From contig NC_013849.1 in NCBI RefSeq assembly GCF_000025505.1, positions 2,070,001 to 2,102,000 of the forward strand: a stretch of 32,000 nt of DNA, in the 5' to 3' direction. The notes under the pieces were generated by a model, which had not been told where the DNA came from, ran no database searches, and was given only the letters and a program-made list of their open reading frames with translations. Source of the stretch: Ferroglobus placidus DSM 10642. GTDB lineage: Archaea; Halobacteriota; Archaeoglobi; Archaeoglobales; Archaeoglobaceae. Shown here in pieces: positions 6,798 to 21,746 of the stretch (within the stretch, counting starts at the first letter, position 1; each line of letters opens with the position of its first letter). Both the position numbers and the translations under genes were made by a program.

Positions 6798-7865
6798 TTA
6801 GAGCAGATAGGTATTTACCAATCTTTCCACGACTTCATCCCAATCCAGCAATTTTACATCTCCAACATTAACATTCGAAACTCTCTCTATCAGTCTGGCA
6901 AGCTCCGAAACGTTTATTGGGTAATCAATACCGAAAACGTTCTTGTTGTCTATCCATTCACTCAAAGCGGATGTGTTAGCAACAATACAAGGTGTTTTTG
7001 CCGCTAAAGCCTCAGCGACAACGATTCCGTAAGCTTCGTGCTTGGATAAAAGGATGAGGGTGTCAGCCTTTACATACCTCTCGATAAGTTCTTTTCTGCT
7101 TAAGTCCTGATAAAACCTAATCCTGTCGATAACATCTAACTTCTTGGCGAGTTTAACTATCTTCTGCTTGTAACTACCTTTACCGACAATCTCAAGTGTG
7201 AAGTTATCGGGCAAGTATTTCAGCGATTTTACGACGTAATCCAGCCCCTTGTACTTCTCGATTCTCCCGACGTAGAGGATAGTTTTCTTTTCCGTTTCTT
7301 TATCTTTCTTCATCTCACCAACGTCTTTAAACTCATCCAAATTTATTCCGTTCGGGATAACATACATTCTATCGGCAACCTTAAAATTCCTTAAAACCAA
7401 ATTTTTTTCGTAGTTGGAAACGCAAATTATAGCGTCAGCTTTCTCAAAAATTTTCCTGCCTACGAGCTTATACGGTTTGTGCAACAGATTTCTGAAAAAG
7501 CTGTGTCCAGCAGCATGGTAATGCGGAGTGAAGAGAAACTTGTTTTTCTTCTTCGTCAAAGCTGCGAACAAAGCGGGAAATGCGTGGTAGTTGTGAGCGT
7601 GAACCAAATCGTATCTCTCACTATTTTTCTTTAAATATCTGTAAAGCTCAAGTGAGAAATAATAAGCCTCCGAAGGTGCAAAAGATCCAAATCGCCTTAC
7701 GGTAATTCCATCGATCTCTTCAACTTTCGGCAGCTTTCCGCCCGGATCTGTGGTTAGAACCTCAACATCGAACTTCTTCGCTATCCTCTTGGCTATTTCG
7801 TAAACGTGGGTTTCAACTCCTCCGATGTAAGGATGAAAGCGGGGTGTGACGTAGGCAATTTTCAC
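6798..7865 (-). CDS. Glycosyltransferase family 4 (GT-B fold)
   Basis: 355 aa. MKIAYVTPRFHPYIGGVETHV is a GT4 N-terminus, and the C-terminal E-x7-E region is KHEAYGIVVAEALAAKTP. GTG start. Confidence 0.85.
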   Translation of the reverse strand: MKIAYVTPRFHPYIGGVETHVYEIAKRIAKKFDVEVLTTDPGGKLPKVEEIDGITVRRFGSFAPSEAYYFSLELYRYLKKNSERYDLVHAHNYHAFPALFAALTKKKNKFLFTPHYHAAGHSFFRNLLHKPYKLVGRKIFEKADAIICVSNYEKNLVLRNFKVADRMYVIPNGINLDEFKDVGEMKKDKETEKKTILYVGRIEKYKGLDYVVKSLKYLPDNFTLEIVGKGSYKQKIVKLAKKLDVIDRIRFYQDLSRKELIERYVKADTLILLSKHEAYGIVVAEALAAKTPCIVANTSALSEWIDNKNVFGIDYPINVSELARLIERVSNVNVGDVKLLDWDEVVERLVNTYLL

Positions 7866-7920
7866 GTTCTTAACTTCGCCAACGAACGTATAAGCGTTTT
7901 TGCGTGCACCGATATAGAAG

Positions 7921-9574
7921 ATGTTTTCATATCGAAAACTTTATCATAGAAAGTTCTCAACAATCAGCGTGAATCTGAAAAAGTTTGACGTAGACGAGCT
8001 TTTCGTAACGCTCTTAATCGTGGTTCTCGTCGTAACAGCTTCAAACGTCTACTTCGTCCTCTCGAACGACATTCCTCGTCTTGGGATCCGGCGCTCCACA
8101 TGTACTACTCGCTGATATACTTTTACCTGATAAAATCGTTCGATTTTGGAAGCGTCGCAAAGGTCAGCAACTACTACCCGCCGTTCTTCCACCTTTCGTC
8201 CACTCCTCTCTACTTCGTTTTCGGCTTCTCCGAGAAGGTCGCAATTCTCACGAACGTGGTTTACTACTTCGTCCTCGTTTACTCGGTTTTTAGGATCGGA
8301 GAAATTCTAAAGGGATAGAAGAGCTGGCTTGATCTCATCCATCGTCGTCTCCGTCTTTCCGGTCCTTATAAAGTTTCAGCGGGTTTACATGCTCGACTTC
8401 GCCTTAATGTCGCTCGTCGCGCTGACAGTATATCTTTACCTCAAATCGAAAGATTTCAGAGATCTAAAATATTCATTGCTCTTCGGGGATTTCGTTTGGT
8501 CTCAGCGAGCTCACGAAGTGGAACGCCTTCATATACGTTCTTCCTACGATTTTTGCGATCTTTCTGATCAACTACTTCACTAGGTGTCCCTATTGCTATG
8601 AGGTTGTTCGAGAGGGTCTAAAGCACAGGTACAGGAAATTCCGCTCGAAGAAACATCTGCAGCTCTATGAAAATAGAAAGAATAAAAATAGTCAATATTT
8701 AAACGGTACATTCTCCATAATTCTGGCGTTCTTCGTAGCTGCGTGGTGGTATCTGCCGAACCTTAGAGTTACTCTTGCGAGACTTACGTACTTCGCAAAC
8801 ATCGGCGGAAGGGAAGGGGATCCGACTTTTCTGACTCTTCGGGGCTGGATTTATTACGCGAACGCTCTGCTCGATCACTTGGGGCTATTCTTCGCTCTGC
8901 TGTTTTTGATCTCTCTTTACTACCTCTACAAGCGAGATCGCAGAATTGCCGTGACAATTTTGGTAGCTTTTGCTGTTCCCTACGTGATCTTAACGATACT
9001 CTCGAACAAGAACCCGAGATATATAATGCCCGTGCTCCCGATCATTGCAGTTTCGATCGGAGCCTTCGTCGGGGATATTTTCGAGAAGAAATTCGGAAAG
9101 GCGTTGGTCGTTCTGATACTCGCGATCGGAATCTTAAACATCTCTGCCGTCACGTTCGGTCAGCCAGGTGTGGATAACAAAATACTGCCGAAGCCCGATC
9201 GTCCGAGGAAAGAGGACTGGAGGATAAACGATCTGCTCGAAGCTATCGAAGAGAGCGGCGGAGAAGGAAAAGTCGTCGTGGTTTTGCCGGACCACCCTTA
9301 CTTAAACGGACAGTCTCTCGAGTTCTACAGGCTGAAAGGCGGATACAAATTCGCTATCTTCAACGGCGTTTACATCGGCTACGAAACGTTCGTTCGCAAC
9401 TTCGACAAAATAGGTTACGTCGTGGTAATAGAACCGAGGGACCACAAGGGCGTGTACGGTGACGTGGAAAAGAAGCTCTACGAATTCTTCTACGAGCACA
9501 GAGACGAGTTCGAAAAAGTGGCGACGTTCAAACTCCCCGACAGCAGCAACATGATTCTCTACAAGAGAGCATGA
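7921..9574 (+). pseudogene. GT-C fold membrane glycosyltransferase (ArnT/PMT_2/GT39-like) broken by about three frameshifts
   Basis: Four consecutive ORFs in frames 1,0,1,2 read through as one polytopic protein. The pieces are ...VLSNDIP | SWDPALHMYYSLIYFYL...RIGEILKG | RRAGLISSIVVSVFP...KYSLLFG | ISFGLSELTKWNAFIYVLPTIF...KNPRYIMPVLP..., followed by a soluble C-terminal domain. The shifts lie near 8075-8082, 8311-8317 (aaaggga) and 8470-8490 (gggg). Confidence 0.65.
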
Positions 9575-9836
9575 TAGATGTCACGAGGGTGCTCAAGTTT
9601 GCGATCGTCGGAGGATTTGGTGCTCTCGTGAACACGTCTCTCCTCTACGCGCTAACAGAATACTTGGGGCTTGAAGAGTAACCTGTGGAGAGTTTTCGGA
9701 ATTGCGCTGAACGTCCTTGTCCTCTACGTTCTGACAGAGTTACTTAAACGTCTACTACCTCCTGTCGAACTTCGCAGGAATTCTTTGCGCTTTCGCTCTC
9801 AACTACACTCTCGAAAGCAAGTTTACGTGGAGGTAG
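9571..9836 (+). pseudogene. GtrA-like membrane protein, frameshifted and shortened
   Basis: MIDVTRVLKFAIVGGFGALVNTSLLYALTEYLGLEE* (stop 9679-9681) is a GtrA N-terminus. The second half appears in two other frames (SNLWRVFGIALNVLVLYVLTELL, then NVYYLLSNFAGILCAFALNYTLESKFTWR*). The pieces total about 92 aa, shorter than typical GtrA proteins. The ATG overlaps the upstream stop (ATGA). Confidence 0.55.
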
Positions 9837-10699
9837 CCGCGAACTCTCCCCAGCGCGACGAACGTGACGGCGATCAGAATTCCCAAGCTTTCAGTAAGCT
9901 CACCTCTCGCAATTCTCTGCAGCGCAGACTTCAAAACGAAGTTGAGGTAGCGCTTCTCCGTGGAGAGCTCGTGTTCTCTACTTAAAATCGCCTTCGAGAA
10001 ACCTTCGTAGTAGGCTCTCCTCAAAGCGTAGCTAAGCTTCGCTCTGCTTTCTGGAACTCTGTGGTAAACTACAGCTGAGGGATCGTAGATTATCTTGGCT
10101 TCCGGCTTCAACTTTTTCAGCCTTAAACAGAGTTCAGTCTCTTCGCTTCCGAGCAGTTTTTTACCGTACCTCCCGACTTCCGCTTTAAATTTTCCAGCGA
10201 CCTCAAAAACTACCCTTCTAAAAGCCATATTCGCGCCGATTGGATTCCTTACTTCAGCTCTGCTTTCCGGCATCCCCTTGTACGTGCAGCCGACGATCCA
10301 GTCGAGCTCTTCGGCAAGCCATCTTGGTCTTTTTTTATCAAATACAGGAACGATTTTTCCTCCCGCTATCCAAACCTTTTCGTCTTCGAAATTCCTCAGC
10401 AAGTTCTCCAGCCACCTCTTATCAGCCCAGGCGTCGTCGTCTACGAAAGCAATTATATCGCCTTTTGAGACCTCGATCCCCTTGTTTCTCGCATTCGAAA
10501 GACCGAAACCGTTGGACTTTACTATCCTTATTCCTTCTCCAATCCGACTTTCGTAGAAACTCACGAGTTCGTCAACGGGATCGAGAACGAGAATTATCTC
10601 ATCTGGCTCCCTCGTCTGACTCTTTAGCGACTCGACGCACCGCTTGACGTCTTCGAGTCTCTCCTTAGTGTACGTCGAAATCACGACCGAAACTCGCAC
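9803..10699 (-). CDS. Glycosyltransferase family 2 (GT-A fold)
   Basis: 298 aa. VSVVISTYTKERLEDVKRCVESLKSQT and the DxD region IIAFVDDDAWAD are present. GTG start. Confidence 0.85.
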   Translation of the reverse strand: MRVSVVISTYTKERLEDVKRCVESLKSQTREPDEIILVLDPVDELVSFYESRIGEGIRIVKSNGFGLSNARNKGIEVSKGDIIAFVDDDAWADKRWLENLLRNFEDEKVWIAGGKIVPVFDKKRPRWLAEELDWIVGCTYKGMPESRAEVRNPIGANMAFRRVVFEVAGKFKAEVGRYGKKLLGSEETELCLRLKKLKPEAKIIYDPSAVVYHRVPESRAKLSYALRRAYYEGFSKAILSREHELSTEKRYLNFVLKSALQRIARGELTESLGILIAVTFVALGRVRGYLHVNLLSRV

Positions 10700-11262: not shown

Positions 11263-11646
11263 ATGAAAGAAGAAGTAAAAGTGTACCTCGAAAGGTCTAA
11301 GAAGTTCGAGAGAGACGCTAAATTCGACTTCGACAACGGAGATTACGACTTGGCTATGTTCCACATAGAACAGGCGATGCAGCTTTTAATAAAAGCGAAG
11401 TTGCTCGACTTGAAAGGTTACTTTGAAAGAACACACAGCTTGAGGAAGCTCTTAAGCGAGCTTAAAGACGTAGAAGGTGTTGAAGATTTTTTGAAAAAAT
11501 ATAAAATCGTTTTGAGAAATCTCGAAAGAGCATACGTAACATCGAGATATTACTTCGAAGAATTTTTCAGAGAAGAGGTGGAGGAGGCTTTCAAAGCTTT
11601 AGAGGAGCTGAGGAGGATACTATGGAAAGAGCAGAATACTTCCTGA
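11263..11646 (+). CDS. HEPN-domain protein (pair A)
   Basis: 127-aa all-helical ORF with ERTHSLRKLL and YVTSRYY motifs typical of archaeal COG2250-type HEPN. It is coupled to a downstream MNT gene. Confidence 0.75.
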   Translation: MKEEVKVYLERSKKFERDAKFDFDNGDYDLAMFHIEQAMQLLIKAKLLDLKGYFERTHSLRKLLSELKDVEGVEDFLKKYKIVLRNLERAYVTSRYYFEEFFREEVEEAFKALEELRRILWKEQNTS

Positions 11647-11933
11647 ACTTCAAAAAATACGCTGAAGAAATAAAGAGAATCTTGAAAGAGCATCTTTCGG
11701 AGTTTGAGGTTTACGTTTTCGGCTCGGTCGTGAGGGGAGATTATTCGATAGGATTGAGCGATATAGATATTGCTGTCGTGTCTGACGAGCTGAAAGATAG
11801 GGAAAAGAAACTGGAGATATACGATTTACTCTTAGAAAAATTCTTCGAAACCCCTTTCGAGTTCCATCTTTTAACGAAGGAGAAGTGGAAGTTCTATCTA
11901 AGGTTTATTAAAAACGACTACGTAAAAATTTAG
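11622..11933 (+). CDS. Minimal nucleotidyltransferase, MNT (pair A)
   Basis: VFGSVVRGDYSIGLSDIDIAVV is the G-S-x(n)-D-x-D pol-beta-type NTase signature. It overlaps the HEPN gene by 25 nt. Confidence 0.85.
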   Translation: MERAEYFLNFKKYAEEIKRILKEHLSEFEVYVFGSVVRGDYSIGLSDIDIAVVSDELKDREKKLEIYDLLLEKFFETPFEFHLLTKEKWKFYLRFIKNDYVKI

Positions 11934-12673
11934 CGGAGTAAAATAATTCCCATGAAGAGTATGACGAAGGATAGAATCAGCCTCAAAGCTCTATCGTCAA
12001 CTTTCGAGTTTGCGTAAACTCCTAAAATTACCCCGGGAGCTGAGGAAGTTATTAAGATCGACGCAAGCTGAAAATCCACGTTACCGATTTTAGCGTGGAT
12101 AATAGAAGCTAACAAAGTTAGAACGAAGCCGAAGAGAAGCTCCGTTCCGACAACAACTTTCGAAATCATCCCGGTAAAAATCAGAAGAAAGAGAGTTACG
12201 AGAACTCCGCTGCCAACGGAGGTTAGCTGAACCAAAAATCCAACGACGAAGCCGATGAGAATTAAGAGGGAATTTTTCGGGATTTCGTCGCTCTTCTTTC
12301 CGAAGAAGGTTTTGTAAATCGTTGCGGTTGAGGAAATTATCAATACTAAAGCCAGAACCCTCGTCAAAAGAATATCTAAGTAATTTACTCCATAATTCTC
12401 AACAACAAACAGCATTAAGAAAGTTGACAAAGCCAAACCCGGAATAGCTCCCGAAAGCAGAAAAACGGAAGCTTTAACGTTGACGTTTCCCCTTTTGAAA
12501 TGGAATACGGTTGCAAAAAACCTCGTTATTGAGTTGTATAGCAAATCCGTTCCCACAGCAACAACCGGAGGAATGCCTAAGAAAATCAAAGCGGGGGTCA
12601 TCAAAGCCCCTCCGCCCATTCCGGTTAATCCCACTAAAAATCCGACGAAAAATCCGAGGACGTAGAGTTCCAA
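11930..12673 (-). CDS. TSUP/TauE-SafE family anion permease
   Basis: 247-aa polytopic protein with GFLVGLTGMGGGALMTPALIFLG, the hallmark of the DUF81/TSUP family. TTG start. It is the last gene of the sat operon. Confidence 0.8.
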   Translation of the reverse strand: MELYVLGFFVGFLVGLTGMGGGALMTPALIFLGIPPVVAVGTDLLYNSITRFFATVFHFKRGNVNVKASVFLLSGAIPGLALSTFLMLFVVENYGVNYLDILLTRVLALVLIISSTATIYKTFFGKKSDEIPKNSLLILIGFVVGFLVQLTSVGSGVLVTLFLLIFTGMISKVVVGTELLFGFVLTLLASIIHAKIGNVDFQLASILITSSAPGVILGVYANSKVDDRALRLILSFVILFMGIILLR

Positions 12674-12676
12674 ACT

Positions 12677-13201
12677 TCAAACCTCCAGGTATCCCAACTC
12701 CTTTGCTTTTTCGATGATAGCCTCAACCTCCTCTTCGACGCTCATTTTGTGGGTTTCGAGAATTAGTTCAGGATCGTCTGGCTCTTCGTAAACACCGTCG
12801 TAGCCAGTTAAGTTTTTAATCTCACCTCGCATAGCTTTAGCGTACAGTCCTTTTGGATCCCTCTTCATCCTTACTTCGAGGGGGCACTTGAGGTAAACTT
12901 CTATGAATTTTCCAATTTCCTCCCTCGCCTTTTCCCTCACTGACTTGTAAGGAGAGATTAAAGAAACGACTGTAACAACTCCGTTCCTTGACAAAAGCTT
13001 AGCCATGTGGATCACTACGCGATTATGCATTTCCCTCGCTTCCTTGCTGAAGCCTATGTCCGGGTAAAGCTTTCTTCTAATTTCATCTCCATCCAAGACC
13101 TCTACCTTCAGCCCCATCTCTTTAAGCCTTTTTTCCAATGCCCTCGCAAGGGTCGTTTTTCCTGCCCCGCTCGGACCGGTAAGCCATACAACGAAGCTCA
13201 T
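12677..13201 (-). CDS. cysC: Adenylylsulfate (APS) kinase
   Basis: 174 aa. FVVWLTGPSGAGKTTLARALEKRL...VLDGDEIR shows the P-loop and the LDGD motif of CysC. Confidence 0.9.
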   Translation of the reverse strand: MSFVVWLTGPSGAGKTTLARALEKRLKEMGLKVEVLDGDEIRRKLYPDIGFSKEAREMHNRVVIHMAKLLSRNGVVTVVSLISPYKSVREKAREEIGKFIEVYLKCPLEVRMKRDPKGLYAKAMRGEIKNLTGYDGVYEEPDDPELILETHKMSVEEEVEAIIEKAKELGYLEV

Positions 13202-14571
13202 ATCAATGCATTCCCCCTGAACTCAGCTTCTATGCCGAAAAGCTTTAGAATGGTAGGAGCGAAGTCGTATATCGAGCAGCTAATCCGCTTACTCTCTATT
13301 TCCGGATGGCTTAGTAGGAAAACTCCGTATTCTGAATGGACGGCATCGTCTGGCCCGGTATCGTTCTCAGCGAGATAGTTCGACTCCCAGCCGAGAGTTC
13401 CGGCAGCCCTCCAGTAGAGATCGTCGAAGTAAACCATTAAGTCCGGCTTGTCTCCCAAAGCGATCGGATATATTTCTTCTGGATAGAAAACCTTCGTATC
13501 CCACTTCTCCCCGTTAGGTCCTCTTATCGACTTTACGTGATCCGCTATTTCTTCCCTAACTTTCTCGTATTCGGATTTCTTTATTATCCCGTTCTTTTCT
13601 CTCCCTTCAACATTGAGGAAAATTCTCGAGTAGTATCCGCCCCAAGCCCACGCAACGGTTTTATTCCAATCGACGTCCAGCTCCTCGAATTTTACTCCGG
13701 CTCTTTTTTCGAGAATTTCAGGATTTCTGATTTTTAAATAGCCCTCCTCGATTAACCACTGATTAACTGCAAAAGCACCCTTCATTCTCTTTACCCCGTG
13801 ATCTGAAACTACAACTACGTAAGTGTCTTCCTCTACAAGCTCGAGGGTCTTTTTTATTTCCCTATCGAGGAGCTTGTAGTAGTCTTTTATAACGTTCTTG
13901 AACTTGCTGTTCTCTTCGTATAGGTGATGCTCTTTGTCGAAATACTTCCAGAAAGCGTGATGAATTCTGTCCAAACCAATTTCAACGAGCCAGAACAAGT
14001 CCCAGTCTTTTTCCTGAATTAGATGCCTTGCAACTTCAAACCTTTTCTCGGTCATTTCCCAGATTTTTTCCTTCACTTCCATCCTCTCGTCTTTTCTGAA
14101 AACGACGTCAAAGATGTACTCTCCAACAATCTTTTCCACCTCTTTCTTAAGCTCTTCGGGATAAGTGTAATTGGAGTTTGCGTCGGGAGTTATAAAGCAG
14201 CTTATTAGCCAACCGTTCACTCTCTTAGGCGGATAGCTTGGCGGAACTCCGATTAAAACGCTTTTCTTACCTTCCATTCCGAGGAAATCCCATATGGCAG
14301 GCTCAACTACCTTTCTGCTGTTCGCTATCCACATTTCATCGTAACTTCCAGCCTTTCTGTGCCTAAATCCGTATAATCCAAGCTCTCCCGGAGTTTTTCC
14401 CGTAAACATCACCGCCCAGGCTGGGATTGTTATTGCCGGAATGCAACTCCTCATCTCCCCGTAAATGGAGTTCTTTAAGAGCTTCTTTATCGCGGGCAGC
14501 TCATCTATGAACTTGCTGAATAAAAGTTCCGGAGGGGCTGAATCCAAACCGAAAATTAAAACCCTTACCAT
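13198..14571 (-). CDS. Alkaline-phosphatase-superfamily enzyme of the nucleotide pyrophosphatase/phosphodiesterase type; function unknown
   Basis: 457 aa. Motifs are LIFGLDSAPP (metal Asp), IPAITIPAWAVMFTGKTPG (T-x-P nucleophile context), GLDRIHHAFW, VVVSDHG and DDAVHSEYG. This is the AlkP/NPP metal-site pattern. Confidence 0.75.
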   Translation of the reverse strand: MVRVLIFGLDSAPPELLFSKFIDELPAIKKLLKNSIYGEMRSCIPAITIPAWAVMFTGKTPGELGLYGFRHRKAGSYDEMWIANSRKVVEPAIWDFLGMEGKKSVLIGVPPSYPPKRVNGWLISCFITPDANSNYTYPEELKKEVEKIVGEYIFDVVFRKDERMEVKEKIWEMTEKRFEVARHLIQEKDWDLFWLVEIGLDRIHHAFWKYFDKEHHLYEENSKFKNVIKDYYKLLDREIKKTLELVEEDTYVVVVSDHGVKRMKGAFAVNQWLIEEGYLKIRNPEILEKRAGVKFEELDVDWNKTVAWAWGGYYSRIFLNVEGREKNGIIKKSEYEKVREEIADHVKSIRGPNGEKWDTKVFYPEEIYPIALGDKPDLMVYFDDLYWRAAGTLGWESNYLAENDTGPDDAVHSEYGVFLLSHPEIESKRISCSIYDFAPTILKLFGIEAEFRGNALI

Positions 14572-15515
14572 ATGCTTTCACCGAAATGTTTCTCAATAAT
14601 TTTCACAACTTCACCAAGCTTTTCTCTCTCGCAAATTACTCCGAGAACGTCTTTTTTTCCTCCAGCGTTCAAATTTTTGCTTTTCAACTTTTTGATCAGC
14701 TCTTCAATCTTGTAATGCTCAGCTCTATCCTCTTTAACTCTCACGTAGAATTGAGAAAAGCCATAGTAGTTCTCGTTAACAACTACTGCAACTTCGCTAT
14801 TTAAGTCCCAAACGAGTTTTCTCGCGATGATAGATGCAATGTTGCAATCCGAAGAGAACTTTGCCAGACTAAACTTACCGTTTTCGCGAACTCTCTTCAA
14901 AACCCTGATTATCTCTCTTTCGATTTTTTCAACATTTCTGTTCCACGCCTCATCCTCAAGCAAATGCTTCGGATCGTTTTTTGCAACTTTCTCTACCGCT
15001 TCCTCAACTCCTCTTCTATCGAAAAGCAGAGACGGGGAGTTTATCAATTCCGCTAAGCGTGAAGCCTCCTCTTCGCTCAACTCATACTTTTTCAAAATTC
15101 TTAAAACCCATCCGAGTTTGAAAGCTCGTCTTCCGAGATCTCCCACAGCTCCCAAAGCAGATTTCCAGTTCCAGTGAGAAAAAAAGGATGAGACAACATA
15201 GCTTGCTGAAGGGGCTTGCTTTCCTTCAAAAATTGGATTTACGTGAACTACATTCTTCTTTTCGATTTTACTTTGAATGTGGTGATCCAAAAAGACTACA
15301 GGCTTTTCTATCCTTTCAACCTCGCTGGGAAGGTTTACGTCAACCACGTAGACTCTCTCCGCCTCTTTTACGGCATTCCAGATTCTTTCATCGAATTTGA
15401 AAATGCCCGGAGGCAATGTGATATTTTCAGAGTTATCTACAGCTTCCAAGATTAGAGATGCTGAACAGATTCCGTCTGTGTCCCAGTGGTGAATTATCAG
15501 ATTCATACTAATCAA
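14565..15515 (-). CDS. DHH/DHHA1-family phosphoesterase, candidate 3'-phosphoadenosine 5'-phosphate (pAp) phosphatase
   Basis: 316 aa. IIHHWDTDGICSA (DHH motifs I/II), VVFLDHHI (motif III) and a C-terminal AGGKKD in place of the DHHA1 GGGH. The function is inferred from its position between sat and cysC and from NrnA-type pAp phosphatase precedent. Confidence 0.7.
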   Translation of the reverse strand: MISMNLIIHHWDTDGICSASLILEAVDNSENITLPPGIFKFDERIWNAVKEAERVYVVDVNLPSEVERIEKPVVFLDHHIQSKIEKKNVVHVNPIFEGKQAPSASYVVSSFFSHWNWKSALGAVGDLGRRAFKLGWVLRILKKYELSEEEASRLAELINSPSLLFDRRGVEEAVEKVAKNDPKHLLEDEAWNRNVEKIEREIIRVLKRVRENGKFSLAKFSSDCNIASIIARKLVWDLNSEVAVVVNENYYGFSQFYVRVKEDRAEHYKIEELIKKLKSKNLNAGGKKDVLGVICEREKLGEVVKIIEKHFGESIW

Positions 15516-16662
15516 CGAAGGGTTTTTCGAAGCTTAAAATCACTTCAGCCACTTCTGGACGCATCATTTCTCTTGGCGGGAATTTTCCTTCCATAAGCAT
15601 CTCTCTTATTTTCGTTCCGCTTGGAGGAATTATGTCATCCCCTCTGTGGGGGCAAACTGCCTCGTTCACGTATCCGTAGCACTTCTTGCAGTAGTAAAAC
15701 TGCTTGAAAAATATTGGAGTAATTCCCAAATCTGGAAATTCCTCGAATATCTCCTGAGCTTCGTAAGGTTTGTAATAGCTTCCAACTCCGGCGTGATCTC
15801 TTCCAACTATGAAATGAGTACATCCAAAATTCTTCCTCACTATAGCGTGAAAAATCGCCTCCCTTGGACCAGCATAACGCATTTCAGTTCTAAGAATTGC
15901 CAAAACCGCTCTGTTCTTTAGGTAGTACTTTTCGATCAAAACTTCGTAGGCTTTGAGTATAACCTCGTCTCTGAAATCACCTTTCTTCTTTTTTCCTATG
16001 ACTGGGTTGATGAAAAGACCGTCTACGAAAGTTAAAGCCGTTTTCTGAACGTACTCGTGCCCTAAATGCGGGGCGTTCCTCGTTTGAAATCCGACGATGG
16101 TTCTCCATCCAAGCTCTTTAAACAAAACTCTCGTCTCTATTGGCTGGAGAGTGTACTTTTCGAAGGGATTTTCGATTCGATTCAAAAGCTCTATTTTCCC
16201 TCCAACGAGCCTATCTCTCATTTCGAAGACTTTTTTTACTCCAGGATGATCCAAATCTGTTGTCTTGAAAACTTTTTCAGCGTACTCTCTTTTATCGAAT
16301 TCGTAAATTTCCTCCACTTCCATCAAAGCTTCCACGTCGCCGTTGGTAACTAAAGCTACAACGTCCCCTTCACGAATTTCTAACTTTTCAAGCTCATCGA
16401 GGGAAACGTCGAGAACAATCGGAATAGTCCACGGAAGATCGTTTTCCAAACGCATGGTCTCAAGAACTGAAATGAAGTCGTTTCTCGTCATGAATCCTTC
16501 AAGAGGCGAGTAAACTCCGTGAGCTATGTTTTCTACCTCTACAGCCGTTTCCTTTGAAATCTCTATTTTCGGCAATTCTTTAGCTTCTTCAAGTAATTTA
16601 CTTCTTCTATCTTCAGCGACAACTCTATTAACGAGCTTTCCTCCGTGAGGTTTTGCTGGCAT
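15508..16662 (-). CDS. sat: Sulfate adenylyltransferase (ATP sulfurylase)
   Basis: 384 aa. Motifs are GFQTRNAPHLGHEYVQK and VGRDHAGVG. The C-terminal Cys/His cluster YYCKKCYGYVNEAVCPH matches the short archaeal/thermophile type. Confidence 0.92.
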   Translation of the reverse strand: MPAKPHGGKLVNRVVAEDRRSKLLEEAKELPKIEISKETAVEVENIAHGVYSPLEGFMTRNDFISVLETMRLENDLPWTIPIVLDVSLDELEKLEIREGDVVALVTNGDVEALMEVEEIYEFDKREYAEKVFKTTDLDHPGVKKVFEMRDRLVGGKIELLNRIENPFEKYTLQPIETRVLFKELGWRTIVGFQTRNAPHLGHEYVQKTALTFVDGLFINPVIGKKKKGDFRDEVILKAYEVLIEKYYLKNRAVLAILRTEMRYAGPREAIFHAIVRKNFGCTHFIVGRDHAGVGSYYKPYEAQEIFEEFPDLGITPIFFKQFYYCKKCYGYVNEAVCPHRGDDIIPPSGTKIREMLMEGKFPPREMMRPEVAEVILSFEKPFVD

Positions 16663-16668
16663 AAAAGA

Positions 16669-16911
16669 TCAGTCCAGGTATCCTAAAGCTCTGAGTCTCT
16701 CCTTTACCTTTTCCTCTTCTTCCTTGCTAAAAGCCTCTTCTTTCTCCTCTTCCTCCAAACTTGCGAGAACCTCTCTTAAAACGTAGGTTACGTAGTCAGA
16801 AACGGAGGTAAAGCCAGTCCCTTCAATTCTCTGCTTTATTTTCTCATACAACTGCACCGGAATGCTAACGGTAGTGTACTTCCTCTTCTCCTCCTCGCTC
16901 ATACAAACCAC
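16669..16911 (-). CDS. Ribbon-helix-helix (CopG-family) DNA-binding protein, first gene of the sat operon
   Basis: KYTTVSIPVQLYEKIKQRIEGTGFTSVSDYVTYVLREVL fits RHH, followed by an acidic tail ending RLRALGYLD. The start is GTG at 16911 or ATG at 16902. Its stop is 6 nt from the sat start. Confidence 0.7.
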   Translation of the reverse strand: MVCMSEEEKRKYTTVSIPVQLYEKIKQRIEGTGFTSVSDYVTYVLREVLASLEEEEKEEAFSKEEEEKVKERLRALGYLD

Positions 16912-16914
16912 CTT

Positions 16915-16938
16915 AATTACATTTAATTAAATGTCATT
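16915..16938. promoter_or_regulatory. 24-bp near-perfect palindrome in the 40-nt gap upstream of the RHH/sat operon; candidate promoter-overlapping operator
   Basis: AATTACATTTAA|TTAAATGTCATT: 11 of 12 positions pair across the dyad. It is AT-rich and placed where the TATA box of the RHH gene should be. Confidence 0.4.
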
Positions 16939-16951
16939 AAAATAGTTTTCG

Positions 16952-17281
16952 TTACAAAACTCTAATCCAGTATTTGCGAGCATCCCTCAGAACTATACTT
17001 TCTTTTCTCTTTAGCTCTTCAGTAGTTACCGGAATTACTTCGACATTTCCGAGCTTCTCTTTCCAAATAATCTCGTTAACAATATCGAGTCTTTTTAAAA
17101 AAGCTACGCCTTCCCAATCGTCGGAAACAACAATCAGATCGATATCGCTACGCTTTAGGTAATCTCCTCGTGCGTAGCTTCCGAAGAGGTAAATTCCACT
17201 AATCTTAATTCCCCTTTTATAAAGAGCCTCTTTTAATTTTTCAGCCACTTCTATTACTCTCTTCGGCAAATTTCTTTGCAT
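16952..17281 (-). CDS. Minimal nucleotidyltransferase, MNT (pair B)
   Basis: LFGSYARGDYLKRSDIDLIVVSD is the NTase signature. It overlaps the upstream HEPN gene by 41 nt. Confidence 0.85.
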   Translation of the reverse strand: MQRNLPKRVIEVAEKLKEALYKRGIKISGIYLFGSYARGDYLKRSDIDLIVVSDDWEGVAFLKRLDIVNEIIWKEKLGNVEVIPVTTEELKRKESIVLRDARKYWIRVL

Positions 17282-17654
17282 AATCTAAAACCTCTTTCGC
17301 AATTTTCAAAGCTCTTTCCGCCTCTATTTTATCCACGCTTTCCGAAGGTAATCCGTTTGCAGCATCTGGATATCTTGAGACGGTGTAGTATTTGTTTAAA
17401 ATGTAGAGCTGCTCTTCTATCTCCTTAGGCAAGTTAAAACCGCTTTTCTTTAATTCAGCGTATAGCTCAGTGACAGTATGAATTTTCGGCGGATCTTCTT
17501 TTTTAACAATGAAAAACATAGCCTTAAATGCCTTTTCTACAGCTTGCTGGGAGAAAAAAGCCGTTCTAAAGTACCTTGAGTTTTTAAAGAATAGTTCTGC
17601 GTCGTAAACGTCGTCTTCAGCAGCTTTCAGCCATAAAGCAACCTCCCTTCGCAT
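17241..17654 (-). CDS. HEPN-domain protein (pair B)
   Basis: 137-aa helical ORF with PPKIHTVTELY and YYTVSRYPD motifs of archaeal HEPN. Confidence 0.8.
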   Translation of the reverse strand: MRREVALWLKAAEDDVYDAELFFKNSRYFRTAFFSQQAVEKAFKAMFFIVKKEDPPKIHTVTELYAELKKSGFNLPKEIEEQLYILNKYYTVSRYPDAANGLPSESVDKIEAERALKIAKEVLDYAKKFAEESNRSG

Positions 17655-17727: not shown

Positions 17728-18216
17728 GTGTTCTTTTCAGAAGTTTACGAGAGCTGGAGGGAAATACAGTACGAGAAGTACGAAGAAATACTGAAAAGAA
17801 TTGAAGCTAACGGCTTAAGCCTCGGAAAGTTCGTTCTCGATCTCGGTTCAGCTTCCGGCTTTCTGTACGATTTTCTGGCTGAAAGAGCTGCTGAAGTTGA
17901 GATAGTTGCACTGGACGTTGATAAAAAATCTCTGATGAAGAACTCTTCCGACCACAGAGTTATTGCCGACGGAGATAACCTCCCCTTCAAAAAAAGCGTA
18001 TTCGACAGTCTTTTCTGCGTCGATGTCGCTCATCTCCTCGACTATCTGGAATTTGACTGCATAAAAAAAGAAGGGACTATCGTTCTTGCTCTTCCAGCGA
18101 GACACAAAAACGTTTTCGAGGAAATTCTGAAGAATAAGAGAAATTGCGAACTCGTGGAAAAATTCGTAGTCAACGGCAGGGAAAAGGAGTTAGTGGCACT
18201 TTTGAAAAAGCTATAA
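17728..18216 (+). CDS. Class I SAM-dependent methyltransferase (small)
   Basis: 162 aa. VLDLGSASGFL is SAM-binding motif I, followed by VALDVD and GDNLPFKKSVFDSLF. GTG start. Confidence 0.7.
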   Translation: MFFSEVYESWREIQYEKYEEILKRIEANGLSLGKFVLDLGSASGFLYDFLAERAAEVEIVALDVDKKSLMKNSSDHRVIADGDNLPFKKSVFDSLFCVDVAHLLDYLEFDCIKKEGTIVLALPARHKNVFEEILKNKRNCELVEKFVVNGREKELVALLKKL

Positions 18217-18245
18217 CAGTAAAATTTAAATCCAAATTTCCGAAG

Positions 18246-20771
18246 ATGTTTGCCATGTCTCAAAAGCTTGAAAGGTACTGGCACGTTCCGTTTATTCTCC
18301 TCGCGATTATTCTCGCTCTCTACATAAGAATCGTAAATCCTTGGAATCTTGTATTCGTTCCTTGGATGGAAGGGGCAAGGCTGAGCGGGAACGACCCCTG
18401 GTATTACTTTAGACTCGTTGAAAGCACCATACACAACTTTCCGAACAGGATTTGGTTTGACGCTTTTACACATTACCCCTACGGCACCTACACGCACTTT
18501 GGCCCCTTCTTAACTTATCTGAGCGCTTTTGCAGCAATGATCGCCGGAGCATCGTCTTCGGCTGAGATTAGAACTGTCATAGCTTTCATCCCAGCAATCG
18601 GAGGAGCTTTGTTAGCTTTGCCAACGTATCTACTAACGAAAGAAGTCTTCGGAAAAAAAGCTGGAGTCATCGCTTCCATTTTAGTCGTTCTGATTCCGGG
18701 ACAGCTGATGGCAAGGAGCGTATTAAGTTTCAACGATCATCACATATGGGAAGTTTTTTGGCAAATTGCAGCTCTCGGAACGTTTATTCTGGCTTACAAC
18801 AGATGGAAGAGCAGAGATTACGGAGAAAATATAAAAGACAATAAGCAGCTGGCCTATCCTATCCTTGCGGGTATTTGCATGGGGTTGTATATACTGGCGT
18901 GGGGACCCGGATTCATCTCAGCTCTTCTCATTCTCGTATTCGTCTTTTTCGCATTTCTGTTAAAGGACTTCTTCAAAATAGATACGAAAAGTCTGGCATT
19001 TGTTTCGGTAATCGCTTTTCTCGTTGCAGCTGTGATTTATCTTCCATTCTCTTTCAAAGCGCCCGGGCTTAGCACTACACGTTATACCGCATTTCAACTT
19101 CTTGTTCTGATCGGCTCAGCTTTAATCGTTAGCCTATTCTATTTTGTCGAAAAATTCGTTGAAAGCAAGATAGACAAAAGGTATGCATTTCAGATCATTA
19201 TTCTGTTGCTATCAGCAACTCTTACAGCGATTGCCTTTATCATCGCTCCGGATTTCGCGAGAAATTTGCAATACATTTTCAGAGTCGTTCAGCCGAAAGG
19301 AGGAGCTTTAACGATAGCGGAAGTCCAGCCATTCTTCTCTCTCGGAGGAAAGTTCAGCTTGACACCAGCGTGGCAGAACTTCAGCGTTACTTTCTTCTTC
19401 GCAATCCCAGCAATGGTGTACTACCTTTATAGACTCGTAAAGACGAGAGACGAAAGATTGCTCTTCATACTGATCTGGGGCTTCGCAATGCTTGTTGCCT
19501 TAGCCGGTCAGAACAGATTCGCCTATTATTTCGGAGTAGTTTCGGCAGTTTTCGCAGCTGCAATAGCTGACAAAATTCTCGAAAAGCTGAGCTTTTACGA
19601 CTACATTTCAGCTGCTGTTAAGAATGATGAGAAAACGATGAAGAAGATAGGAGCGAGTAAAGTTATAGCCGGAGCGCTCGTTCTTGCAGTTTTAATATAC
19701 CCGACGTTCTCTCAAGCTAACTTCTACAGCAAGTATTCAGCTGGAGGTATAAACAAGCAGTGGTATGATGCACTAATTTGGATGCGGGAAAACACTCCGG
19801 GAAAGGAGATGTACGATAAGTTCTACTACGAACTCTACAAACCTCCAGAAAATCCGAGGGAAAGGTATCCTTACTATCCCGAGGGAGTCTACAGTGTTAT
19901 GAGCTGGTGGGACTACGGGCACTGGATCACGGCAATAGCTCACAGAATCCCCGTTGCCAACCCTTTCCAGCAAGGAATAGGGAACAAGTACAACAACGTT
20001 CCCGGAGCAGCACCTTTCTTCACAGCTCTAAACGAAAGCTACGCAAATAGCATAGCGGAAAAGCTTGATGTTAAATATGTCGTGAGCGATGTGGAAATGG
20101 CTACCGGAAAGTTTTACGCCATGGCAGTTTGGGCTGAGGGGACTCTCGAAAAAGGGTGGAGAACTTATTACGCCGGAACTGGCATAATCTACCACGATCT
20201 GAGAGGAAACATAGGCATCTCCCTCTCCCCAAGACTTCCTCCGGGAGTGACTCCTATGGGAACTATAAGCGTTCCGAACGAAAACTACTACAAGACTATG
20301 GAAGCCAAGTTCCACATCTTCGACGGAATCGGATTAAAGCACTACAGAATGGTATACGAAAGCGAATCTTCAGCCGGAACTTTTCCCGGGATTCAAGAAC
20401 TTTTCTATCGAAAAAGATTCAACAGCATCTACTCTAAGAGCTTCGGCTTCAAAGTGAATGAAACGTCCACGGGCTACGTCAAAGTTTTCGAATACGTGAA
20501 AGGTGCAATTGTGAAAGGAAAAGCTTCTGGAGACTACGTTGTTGCTAAAGTGAAAATAAAAACGAATCAAGGGAGAGTTTTCGAGTACGTTCAGAGAGTT
20601 AAAGTTGAAAACGGAGAATACGAGCTCGTATTACCTTACGCTCAGGAAACAAAATATCCGGTGAAGCCGATAGAAGATTACAGAATAGAAAGCGGAGGTG
20701 TCGTGAAAACGCTGAAGCTGAGCGATGAGGAGTTGGAGAAGGGAGAGGTAATCCAGCTCGATCTGATTTAG
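18246..20771 (+). CDS. aglB: Archaeal oligosaccharyltransferase AglB (STT3 family), long form
   Basis: Polytopic N-terminal domain with GNDPWYYFR and SFNDHH acidic-loop motifs. The diagnostic SWWDYGHW (WWDYG) motif is present, followed by a soluble C-terminal domain. The start is placed at MFAMSQKLERYWHVPFILL (18246; alternative ATG at 18255), because the track ORF start at 18144 lies inside the methyltransferase gene. Confidence 0.92.
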   Translation: MFAMSQKLERYWHVPFILLAIILALYIRIVNPWNLVFVPWMEGARLSGNDPWYYFRLVESTIHNFPNRIWFDAFTHYPYGTYTHFGPFLTYLSAFAAMIAGASSSAEIRTVIAFIPAIGGALLALPTYLLTKEVFGKKAGVIASILVVLIPGQLMARSVLSFNDHHIWEVFWQIAALGTFILAYNRWKSRDYGENIKDNKQLAYPILAGICMGLYILAWGPGFISALLILVFVFFAFLLKDFFKIDTKSLAFVSVIAFLVAAVIYLPFSFKAPGLSTTRYTAFQLLVLIGSALIVSLFYFVEKFVESKIDKRYAFQIIILLLSATLTAIAFIIAPDFARNLQYIFRVVQPKGGALTIAEVQPFFSLGGKFSLTPAWQNFSVTFFFAIPAMVYYLYRLVKTRDERLLFILIWGFAMLVALAGQNRFAYYFGVVSAVFAAAIADKILEKLSFYDYISAAVKNDEKTMKKIGASKVIAGALVLAVLIYPTFSQANFYSKYSAGGINKQWYDALIWMRENTPGKEMYDKFYYELYKPPENPRERYPYYPEGVYSVMSWWDYGHWITAIAHRIPVANPFQQGIGNKYNNVPGAAPFFTALNESYANSIAEKLDVKYVVSDVEMATGKFYAMAVWAEGTLEKGWRTYYAGTGIIYHDLRGNIGISLSPRLPPGVTPMGTISVPNENYYKTMEAKFHIFDGIGLKHYRMVYESESSAGTFPGIQELFYRKRFNSIYSKSFGFKVNETSTGYVKVFEYVKGAIVKGKASGDYVVAKVKIKTNQGRVFEYVQRVKVENGEYELVLPYAQETKYPVKPIEDYRIESGGVVKTLKLSDEELEKGEVIQLDLI

Positions 20772-20814: not shown

Positions 20815-21303
20815 ATGGAAAACGTTCATCTGAATCTTGCGAGAAAACTCGTGGATCTTTTGAAAAGAAAGTTCCGTGAAAGACTAATCTCTGTGGCTGT
20901 ATTTGGATCTGTGGCAAGGGGAGAAGCGAGAAAGGACAGCGACATAGACGTTTTGGTAGTAATCGAAAATCCTCCTAAAAGTAGAATTAGGAGGCAGCTC
21001 GAATTTGCAGAAGCCGAAAAGGATTTGGAAAATCTAAAAGATGAGCTGATCGACAAAGGTTATTTCATCGACTTCTCGCCGTTAATTCTTTCTCCGGAAG
21101 AGGTGAAAAATCATCCGCCAATTCTTCTCGACATGGTCGAGGATGCTATAATCCTTTACGACAAGAACGATTTTCTCAGAAAAACCCTTGAAAATTTAAA
21201 GGAGAAACTTCGAAAGCTCGGAGCAAAAAGGGTGAGAATTGGCAAAAGATGGTACTGGATCCTAAAGCCGGACTACAAGTTCGGAGAGGTGATAGAGATT
21301 TGA
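20815..21303 (+). CDS. Nucleotidyltransferase-domain protein, MNT-type with C-terminal extension (pair C)
   Basis: VFGSVARGEARKDSDIDVLVV is the NTase signature. 162 aa. A TATA-like aaagtataatt lies about 27 nt upstream. Confidence 0.8.
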   Translation: MENVHLNLARKLVDLLKRKFRERLISVAVFGSVARGEARKDSDIDVLVVIENPPKSRIRRQLEFAEAEKDLENLKDELIDKGYFIDFSPLILSPEEVKNHPPILLDMVEDAIILYDKNDFLRKTLENLKEKLRKLGAKRVRIGKRWYWILKPDYKFGEVIEI

Positions 21304-21314
21304 ACAGTCTTTCG

Positions 21315-21746
21315 ATGGCTAAAGCTTACATTAGACAGGCTGAGGAAAGGAAGAAACACGCTGAAGAAGCTTTCGAAAGCGGGAATTACCCTTACGTAAT
21401 AAGGCAGTGTCAAGAAGCGGTTGAGCTGTCTTTGAAAGCGGCTCTGAGGATTGTAGGGATAGAGCCGCCCAAACTTCACGATGTCGGTCCAATACTCAGA
21501 AAAAACAAGGATTTGTTTCCCGAATGGTTTAGAGAGAATGTTGATAAAATGGCGTCTATTTCGAGAACTTTGAGAAGGGAAAGGGAAACGAGCATGTACG
21601 GAGATGAAGAATTGTCTTTACCTCCGGAAGAAATTTACTCTAAAGAGGATGCTAAAATGGCTTTGGAAGGTTGCAACTTCGTCCTAAAAAATTGTAAAAA
21701 ACTCTTGGAAGAATTCATTCAAAATACTTCTTCGCAAAATCCTTAA
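21315..21746 (+). CDS. HEPN-domain protein (pair C)
   Basis: The start is placed at MAKAYIRQAEERKKHAEEAF (ATG 21315), 11 nt after the MNT stop. Motifs are PPKLHDVGPIL and RRERETSMYGDE. The track ORF start at 21249 overlaps the MNT gene. Confidence 0.75.
   Translation: MAKAYIRQAEERKKHAEEAFESGNYPYVIRQCQEAVELSLKAALRIVGIEPPKLHDVGPILRKNKDLFPEWFRENVDKMASISRTLRRERETSMYGDEELSLPPEEIYSKEDAKMALEGCNFVLKNCKKLLEEFIQNTSSQNP

Follow-up and report, generated by a model that had tools for sequence, protein, structure and literature searches.

For what purpose do anaerobic hyperthermophiles living in sulfide make 3'-phosphoadenosine 5'-phosphosulfate (PAPS)? This question is raised by a six-gene operon in a stretch of 32,000 nt from Ferroglobus placidus DSM 10642 (NC_013849.1, positions 2,070,001 to 2,102,000; the whole of this stretch is called the window below, and positions are counted from its first letter). 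An earlier note on this DNA, made from the sequence alone, had proposed that the operon supplies PAPS and recycles its by-product, 3'-phosphoadenosine 5'-phosphate (pAp), that no recognisable consumer of PAPS accompanies it, and that an enzyme class not yet linked to PAPS might use it to sulfate a glycan, lipid carrier or metabolite. We regard the locus (Ferp_2428-2433), with a probability of about 0.75, as a self-contained archaeal PAPS module for sulfate activation, removal of inorganic pyrophosphate (PPi), phosphorylation of adenosine 5'-phosphosulfate (APS) and removal of pAp. The recurrence of this module in N-glycosylation and surface-glycan clusters, together with a version lacking sat in sulfate-reducing Archaeoglobi, argues for the sulfation of cell-surface glycans over sulfur assimilation.

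Both the cluster and the puzzle of its missing consumer are already in print. In its treatment of the cluster, the paper of Jin et al. 2021 (PMC8268124) draws ferp_2428-2433 among the examples of a conserved archaeal arrangement of copG, ATP sulfurylase, a DHH pApase, a type I phosphodiesterase/nucleotide pyrophosphatase and APS kinase with tauE adjacent, and the corresponding passages of this paper and of PMC4463584 name it the 'sulfate assimilation' cluster. As the module is already published, describing it contributes little that is new; the analysis sharpens the question of its purpose.

The six genes and the reactions they would perform

The operon and the palindrome upstream of it are composed as follows, the DHH gene being Ferp_2431, the AlkP-family gene Ferp_2430, and sat and cysC Ferp_2432 and Ferp_2429:

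16669-16911, minus strand: ribbon-helix-helix (RHH; CopG-like) regulator, first gene of the operon (RHH_1, weak)
15508-16662, minus strand: sat, ATP sulfurylase (PF01747 and PF14306, NF003166, TIGR00339)
14565-15515, minus strand: predicted DHH/DHHA1-type pAp phosphatase of the MtPAPP / TON_1706 / PyapApase type (match to 8A8K)
13198-14571, minus strand: AlkP-superfamily protein of the nucleotide pyrophosphatase/phosphodiesterase (NPP) type (PF01663)
12677-13201, minus strand: cysC, APS kinase (PF01583, TIGR00455)
11930-12673, minus strand: TauE/SafE (TSUP) anion permease, last gene of the operon (PF01925)
16919-16934, no strand: palindrome ACATTTAATTAAATGT, a perfect 16-mer found by sequence inspection

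The tight packing of six same-strand genes and the perfect palindrome ahead of the first of them were confirmed, the junctions recomputed from the open reading frames (ORFs) being +6, -8, -7, -4 and +3 nt. These values hold for the longest ORFs; with the DHH gene starting at the ATG at 15506 (313 aa), as it does in independent gene calls on assemblies of the same organism, the sat/DHH junction becomes +1 and not -8, and the packing is unchanged by either choice of start codon. Pfam and NCBIfam agree on the families to which the earlier note had assigned the proteins, RHH_1 alone falling below its cut-off.

The synthesis of PAPS by Sat and CysC is borne out by scores far above the curated cut-offs for both enzymes. 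Sat matches PF01747 (5e-93), PUA_2 (PF14306, 1e-57), NF003166 (548 bits, cut-off 387) and TIGR00339 (419, cut-off 323), and its translation contains the motifs QTRNAPHLGH and GRDHAG; CysC matches PF01583 (1e-58) and TIGR00455 (233.5 bits, cut-off 138.7) and shows the P-loop GPSGAGKTT. The DHH protein is recognised by Pfam only weakly and in its N-terminal DHH domain (PF01368, 4e-8). Its full-length phmmer match is to the characterised PAP phosphatase of Methanothermococcus thermolithotrophicus (MtPAPP, PDB 8A8K; E 1.4e-80, residues 5-310 aligned), with the metal-binding motifs HHWDTDG, DVN, DHH and GAVGD in register and HHWDTDG, DHH and GAVGD identical. This upholds the earlier suggestion of a PAP phosphatase, and we predict that the gene product is a pAp phosphatase orthologous to MtPAPP; Mn-dependent hydrolysis of pAp to AMP and Pi has been reported for homologs, and the passage of PMC4463584 on the cluster cites Lee et al. 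2009 for the characterisation of TON_1706 as a PAP phosphatase. The permease scores well against PF01925 (8e-43, 147 bits, cut-off 32.6), and tauE lies directly 3' of cysC in Thermococcus, Pyrococcus, Methanocaldococcus, Geoglobus and other loci.

The AlkP-family gene, which the earlier note had left as an unexplained member of the operon, has a counterpart with a published function: TON_1705 of Thermococcus onnurineus was characterised as an inorganic pyrophosphatase (PPase; Lee et al. 2009, J Bacteriol 191:3415, as cited in the relevant passages of PMC4463584, PMC9653972 and PMC8268124), with a kcat of 2.1 s-1 and a Km of 18.8 uM for PPi as quoted in PMC9653972. TON_1707 to TON_1704 are given in the description of the cluster in PMC4463584 in the order sat-DHH-AlkP-cysC, the order seen in all Thermococcus loci, where the AlkP protein is 65-71% identical to that of the window (69% for Pyrococcus yayanosii PYCH_17550). 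By this synteny the window protein would be the TON_1705 counterpart and is predicted, less directly than the other enzymes, to be a PPase that removes the PPi made by Sat. A pyrophosphatase belongs in such a module, since PPi removal was rate-limiting for ATP sulfurylase and APS kinase (ATPS/APSK) in vitro (Jespersen et al. 2023, PMC10322725).

The protein, which has 100% identity to one of F. placidus DSM 10642, matches PF01663 at 2.8e-46 (159 bits, cut-off 23), and seven of its residues (D10, T48, D201, H205, D257, H258 and H412) are invariant across 24 AlkP-family homologs; these we take, on our assumed mapping to NPP numbering, to be the NPP Thr nucleophile and six metal ligands. A sequence search against the PDB gave no match for it. 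Its AlphaFold2 model (mean predicted local distance difference test, pLDDT, of 74, the active-site loops being of low confidence) is placed by Foldseek nearest to NPP structures (ENPP1, snake-venom phosphodiesterase and the Xanthomonas NPP 2GSN; E about 1e-13, 13-14% identity). The NPP-like fold and the seven invariant residues together indicate that the protein is an intact NPP-type metalloenzyme with a Thr nucleophile, which would fit a phosphoanhydride hydrolase.

Under the mechanism that we propose, a CopG-like RHH repressor would bind ATTAA repeats over its own promoter and control one translationally coupled operon, presumably read as a single transcript. Sat would convert sulfate and ATP to APS and PPi, the NPP-type AlkP-family enzyme would hydrolyse the PPi and so pull forward the very unfavourable Sat equilibrium, and CysC would convert APS and ATP to PAPS and ADP; the DHH enzyme would clear the inhibitory by-product pAp after PAPS has been used, and the TauE-type permease would move a sulfur oxyanion, the uptake of sulfate being the simplest guess. 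The roles of Sat, CysC and the DHH PAP phosphatase follow, at the level of sequence, from orthology to characterised enzymes, that of the PPase less directly. The PPase might moreover pull the PPi-releasing sugar-nucleotide syntheses encoded next door.

Conservation, operator and surroundings

We surveyed the gene neighbourhoods of the best 80 of 287 relatives of the AlkP-family protein (52-89% identity), counting over those loci with enough flank. They come from Archaeoglobi, Thermococci, Methanococci (Methanocaldococcus), DPANN, Asgard, Bathyarchaeia, Aigarchaeota, Thermoplasmatota, Thermoproteota and the bacterial Aminicenantes/Acidobacteriota. The linkage of the AlkP gene to sat and cysC, for which the earlier note had proposed such a comparison, proved strongly positive, the gene standing between the two across archaeal and bacterial phyla: cysC is directly 3' of it in 67/74 loci, sat is 5' of it on the same strand in 41/57, and both flank it in 38/55. 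An RHH gene heads the cluster in 44/57 loci, and 29 of 66 have the DHH gene. From these counts the core is RHH-sat-AlkP-cysC, to which the DHH gene and TauE are often added; the gene order of the window recurs unchanged in Thermococcus, Pyrococcus, Methanocaldococcus and Geoglobus loci. A form without sat, RHH-(DHH)-AlkP-cysC, was found in 13 loci, all Archaeoglobi-type and including the cultured sulfate reducers Archaeoglobus neptunius and A. sulfaticallidus (the set is listed as L003, L005, L006, L008, L009, L011, L013, L014, L017, L020, L025, L028, L029; L083, L084). In A. sulfaticallidus an IS605 OrfB gene lies between the RHH gene and the DHH gene.

The bacterial Aminicenantes/Acidobacteriota clusters (L041, L044-L047, L049-L051, L056, L057, L059, L060, L064, L068-L071, L074, L076, L077, L080) are of the form RHH-sat-AlkP-cysC, are 52-58% identical to the archaeal proteins and look like an inter-domain transfer of the cassette; a TviC/GalE-like epimerase of the short-chain dehydrogenase/reductase (SDR) family follows directly 3', and a sigma-70-like promoter replaces the ATTAA operator. 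The SDR gene after cysC in Aminicenantes was considered as a UDP-sulfoquinovose synthase and this was discarded, as it scores best as a TviC/GalE-like epimerase and falls below all cut-offs.

Upstream of the RHH gene, ATTAA half-sites occur in about 17 archaeal loci in 2-4 copies with exact 10-nt phasing (the background being 0.14 per 100 nt), sited between a TATA-like box and the ribosome-binding site, and TTTAATTAAATRTMATTAAATATCATTAA is the consensus of their alignment; Geoglobus acetivorans, G. ahangari and Methanocaldococcus bathoardescens have the motif as well. The RHH homologs share up to 97% identity over the DNA-binding part, and the first gene of the ferp cluster is of the type named a putative copG factor in the cluster description of PMC8268124. 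Tandem 10-bp-phased sites over a promoter are what an RHH repressor would bind, and this suggests a repressor role for the protein. In the window, ACATTTAATTAAATGT lies in the 40-nt gap ahead of the RHH gene, after the stop codon of the MNT gene upstream (16952) and before the Shine-Dalgarno sequence and start codon of RHH, and overlaps an AT-rich promoter region; the most likely start of the RHH gene, judging by its context, is the ATG at 16902, preceded by aaGGTGg with a GGTG ribosome-binding site. The palindrome appears to be the local form of the ATTAA-repeat operator and is thus a probable, candidate operator of the RHH regulator; a single 16-nt palindrome in 32 kb of AT-rich DNA could arise by chance alone.

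The genes around the operon are the following:

6798-7865, minus strand: GT4 glycosyltransferase (GT), part of the glycosyltransferase block 6798-10699
7921-9574, plus strand: GT-C, fragmented, part of the same block
9803-10699, minus strand: AglG-like GT2, part of the same block
11263-11933, plus strand: HEPN/MNT toxin-antitoxin-like pair on one flank of the operon (domain matches)
16952-17654, minus strand: HEPN/MNT pair on the other flank (domain matches)
18144-20771, plus strand: AglB oligosaccharyltransferase (STT3, AglB_core and AglB_L1; TIGR04154, 801 bits, cut-off 450)
20815-21746, plus strand: third HEPN/MNT pair

The glycosylation island described earlier (GT4, a fragmented GT-C, an AglG-like GT2, a methyltransferase and AglB) was recovered, with the operon standing between the AglG-like GT2 and the methyltransferase with AglB, and with GT4 and GT-C further to the left. 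Relatives place the module in comparable company. In G. acetivorans it adjoins AglB, DUF354, a UDP-sugar dehydrogenase and a 2-epimerase, and in G. ahangari its neighbours are GlmS, DegT and two GlmU-like genes together with GFO/IDH, a UDP-sugar dehydrogenase and an acetyltransferase. Behind the module of both P. yayanosii and M. bathoardescens come a Wzx-type flippase, an AlkP paralog of about 540 aa, GT2, DegT and FdtA, and two DPANN loci (L016 and L019) read UbiA-AglB-AglH-Wzx-(sat-AlkP-cysC)-RmlABCD-GT2-AlkP paralog. In A. neptunius, RHH-AlkP-cysC stands amid GT4, GT2, flippase and epimerase genes and a PF00884 protein. Glycan-type neighbours were found in 37/60 loci of at least 9 kb, a proportion that has no matched random control, and the cases partly share ancestry (Archaeoglobales) or a transferred supercluster (Pyrococcus/Methanocaldococcus).

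The PF00884 protein in the A. neptunius glycan cluster next to AlkP-cysC (L083:5958-7235, plus strand; 425 aa) belongs to the 'sulfatase' family and has the nucleophile motif WTIPSH (Thr, NPP-like) in place of the C/S-x-P-x-R of true sulfatases. In the window, the GT-C gene (Alg9/PMT-like) is broken up into four or more ORFs that lie in different frames (7921-8115, 8100-8318, 8329-8583 and 8879-9574), the last part alone being called as a gene in independent assemblies, and the gene is probably a pseudogene. The longest AglB ORF, from the TTG at 18144, overlaps the 3' end of the methyltransferase gene by 73 nt, and the true AglB start probably lies further downstream. Three HEPN/MNT (nucleotidyltransferase) pairs occur within 10 kb, and two of these, inverted relative to each other, stand on either side of the PAPS operon. 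Only 40 nt separate the end of the upstream pair from the RHH gene, and both lie on one strand, so that read-through transcription is possible. That the operon is a mobile cassette was considered and set aside, as there are no significant flanking DNA repeats, the flanking HEPN proteins are 29% identical and the GC content is not distinctive.

The destination of the PAPS

No consumer is recognisable in the window, as the earlier note had held: among the window ORFs of at least 100 aa there was no Pfam match to CysH, a sulfite reductase or a sulfotransferase, the window contains none of the PF01507, AprAB and NIR_SIR domains, and a motif and phmmer scan of all six frames yielded neither PF00685/PF13469 nor the 5'-phosphosulfate-binding (5'-PSB) and 3'-phosphate-binding (3'-PB) motifs. 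A first regular expression for the PAPS-binding loop found nothing; a relaxed version, together with reading of the sequences, recovered two sulfotransferases elsewhere, which serve as positive controls. These are canonical enzymes encoded beside the module and GT genes, one in an Aigarchaeota locus (L042, PF00685, 1.8e-18) and the other in a Thermococcus locus (L031, PF13469, 7e-7), and the text on the cluster in Jin et al. 2021 (PMC8268124) likewise mentions an adjoining sulfotransferase gene in other archaea. As to reduction, the section of the G. ahangari genome paper on these genes (PMC4600277) records a second sat in one cluster with aprAB and a gene that has a nitrite/sulfite-reductase domain, and reports F. 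placidus homologs of aprAB and of the sulfite-reductase-like gene, which lie outside the window. The PAPS consumer is encoded outside the operon and outside the window. The suggestion that an enzyme class not yet linked to PAPS is required falls away, and a novel consumer is not established, because canonical sulfotransferases adjoin the module elsewhere and a reductive route may exist elsewhere in the genome.

The use of PAPS to which we give a little better than an even chance, judging from gene context, is the sulfation of an N-glycan, a lipid-linked oligosaccharide or another surface glycan by a sulfotransferase whose gene lies elsewhere. An organism that produces plenty of sulfide has no need of PAPS for assimilation, and the sulfide-producing Archaeoglobi keep cysC and, mostly, the pAp phosphatase; together with the recurrent glycan context, this retention makes the sulfation of glycans or lipid-linked oligosaccharides the most likely outcome. 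Of the earlier proposal, the supply of PAPS for a glycan or lipid carrier thus gains real comparative support from the recurrent neighbours, and the new enzyme class that went with it is not needed. If the reading is true, sulfation joins the N-glycan chemistry of Archaeoglobales, Thermococcales and Methanococcales, and the clusters show where to seek the sulfotransferase.

Several points weigh against the module as we read it or against its use in glycan sulfation. The enzyme roles are taken from homologs of other organisms and not from F. placidus proteins, and that of the PPase comes from a single homolog known through passages of the papers that cite it; the kcat of TON_1705 (2.1 s-1) is moreover far below that of dedicated PPases, so that PPi might not be its physiological substrate. 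The AlkP gene is kept in the cassettes without sat, which a pure Sat-helper role does not predict, and in four Desulfurococcales/Thermoprotei loci (L055, L058, L062 and L078) a primary-type AlkP, 57-59% identical to the operon protein, has no adjacent sat or cysC and is followed by GT4 and 1-2 AlkP paralogs, a misfit with a role limited to helping Sat. The RHH_1 score of the window RHH protein (16.4 bits, cut-off 20.5) is below threshold. No sulfotransferase was found in the window, and in six cultured relatives there was none up to 10 kb from the module, sulfated glycans are not documented for Archaeoglobales in the literature searched, and an orthologous module feeds assimilatory reduction in M. 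thermolithotrophicus (PMC10322725).

This last point leads to the explanation in which PAPS (or APS) is fed into assimilatory sulfate reduction, PAPS being turned into sulfite by a reductase encoded elsewhere, which could be AprAB-like, as in M. thermolithotrophicus, or of the thioredoxin type, and sulfide for biosynthesis then being formed by a sulfite-reductase-like enzyme, the position among glycan genes being incidental. We consider it rather unlikely, in spite of the name that the published descriptions of the cluster give it ('sulfate assimilation'), of the M. thermolithotrophicus genes for ATPS, APSK and PAP phosphatase (PAPP), which are accompanied by an AprAB-like PAPS reductase and enable growth on sulfate (PMC10322725), and of the second G. 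ahangari sat, which the section cited above (PMC4600277) places with aprAB and a nitrite/sulfite-reductase-domain gene. The aprAB cluster of Geoglobus and Ferroglobus has its own sat and is without cysC, so it looks APS-dependent and leaves a separate PAPS branch unexplained. Furthermore, dissimilatory sulfate reducers, which do not need assimilation, keep AlkP-cysC with or without the DHH gene, the module recurs beside glycan genes, its neighbours showed no recurring reductase cluster, and P. yayanosii is without an identified reductase according to the account of the cluster in PMC8268124. That PAPS or pAp is instead a signalling nucleotide (e.g. in stress or pressure adaptation) with no bulk consumer was raised in the same account, where high pressure is reported to raise the levels of the module proteins in P. 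yayanosii (Jin et al. 2021, PMC8268124). It appears extremely improbable: there is no receptor or target, the dedicated permease, PPase and pAp phosphatase indicate flux and not signalling, and the recurrent glycan context would be left unexplained.

Two further explanations assign the central role to AlkP-superfamily proteins. In at least a dozen loci, paralogs of the operon protein (22-33% identical, 480-547 aa, with the catalytic D/T/D-H/D-H motifs kept) accompany the module or its glycan neighbours, among them a family of about 540 aa (AlkP-L) with PF01663, weak Sulfatase/SGSH_C matches and basic C-terminal tails:

L086:14386-16023, minus strand: AlkP-L
L087:14271-15887, minus strand: AlkP-L
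L016:15589-17232, minus strand: AlkP-L
L036:7841-9421, plus strand: AlkP-L
L042:5178-6722, minus strand: AlkP-L
L089:10001-11635, plus strand: AlkP-L

The AlkP-L proteins of P. yayanosii and M. bathoardescens are 68% identical, that of the DPANN archaeon (L016) is 37% identical, and its nearly identical C-terminus suggests recent transfer among vent archaea. AlkP-L is, by sequence, a candidate enzyme of glycan modification; for a non-canonical sulfotransferase it is the one concrete candidate. That the consumer belongs to a class not yet linked to PAPS, with AlkP-L acting as a ping-pong sulfotransferase through a sulfo-threonine intermediate, is distinctly unlikely, and there is only a slim chance that Ferroglobus, Geoglobus, P. 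yayanosii and Methanocaldococcus sulfate their N-glycans or lipid-linked oligosaccharides with it; if this were true, AlkP-L would be the first PAPS-dependent sulfotransferase of alkaline-phosphatase fold. The idea draws on the place of AlkP-L right next to the module, in the company of GT2, DegT and a Wzx flippase, in P. yayanosii, M. bathoardescens and DPANN L016, on further paralogs that adjoin the module in loci of Asgard, Bathyarchaeia, Aigarchaeota and Desulfurococcales, on the retained catalytic motifs in a large family that bears generic names only, and on the absence of an annotated sulfotransferase in P. yayanosii according to the cluster account in PMC8268124. The window, however, has no AlkP-L and the best 120 matches include none from F. 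placidus (which is not proof of absence), the glycan cluster that holds the G. acetivorans SBH6 copy lacks a PAPS module within 10 kb, and canonical sulfotransferases adjoin the module elsewhere (L042, L031). Nothing ties AlkP-L chemically to PAPS; it could equally well be a phosphodiesterase or a phospho-group transferase acting on glycans, and to our knowledge no enzyme of the AlkP fold uses PAPS.

It is very unlikely, in turn, that the operon AlkP protein is not a PPase and acts on sulfonucleotides, as a PAPS/APS hydrolase, a regulator of their pool or the sulfotransferase itself. This would accord with the low kcat of TON_1705 on PPi (2.1 s-1, as quoted in PMC9653972), with the retention of the gene beside cysC where sat is absent, with the NPP-type nucleotide phosphodiesterase fold and with its very high conservation (52-89% identity across domains). 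Nevertheless, TON_1705 has a Km of 18.8 uM for PPi and its published assignment, as cited, is that of a PPase; the hydrolysis of APS or PAPS would be futile where the module has spent two ATP on their synthesis; the recurrence of one gene order in very different contexts fits a role in PAPS synthesis better than one tied to a specific acceptor; and neighbouring nucleotide-sugar synthesis genes also release PPi.

Comparison with known systems

The use of the module for glycan sulfation follows the logic of the rhizobial NodPQ/NodH system, in which a dedicated and separately regulated PAPS supply serves the sulfation of Nod factor and not sulfur assimilation. NodPQ is of the CysDN/CysC type and adjoins the canonical sulfotransferase NodH, whereas the F. 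placidus Sat is of the homo-oligomeric type and has no sulfotransferase adjacent. With the NPP family (2GSN, ENPP1), the AlkP protein of the window shares the fold, PF01663 and the conserved Thr nucleophile and metal ligands; it differs in being cytoplasmic and without a signal peptide, in its 13-14% identity, in having TIPAW where NPPs have the TxPNH motif, and in that the substrate reported for its homolog is inorganic PPi and not a nucleotide diester.

The T. onnurineus (TON_1704-1707) and P. yayanosii (PYCH_17520-17570) clusters have the gene content and order of F. placidus, with nothing substantive differing in them; the F. placidus operon is set apart by its insertion between N-glycosylation genes and by the HEPN/MNT pairs that bracket it. 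The papers on the Thermococcales clusters, in the parts devoted to them, treat the cluster as one of sulfur assimilation and leave neighbouring glycosylation genes unmentioned. In the M. thermolithotrophicus operon (PMC10322725), ATPS, APSK and a DHH-type PAP phosphatase stand together as they do in F. placidus, but it includes a consumer, the AprAB-like PAPS reductase, whereas the F. placidus window is without a reductase; the portion of that paper on the locus does not mention an AlkP-type PPase and proposes a pyrophosphatase under a separate accession.

In the low-salt N-glycan pathway of Haloferax volcanii, Agl7 contributes to the sulfation of a dolichol-phosphate-bound hexose (PMC3892788). 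Genes for PAPS synthesis are not described in the part of that account dealing with the Agl7 cluster, unlike the F. placidus island, in which they are present. The pathway nonetheless gives a precedent for a sulfation step in archaeal N-glycan assembly, carried out on the lipid carrier and encoded within a glycosylation cluster.

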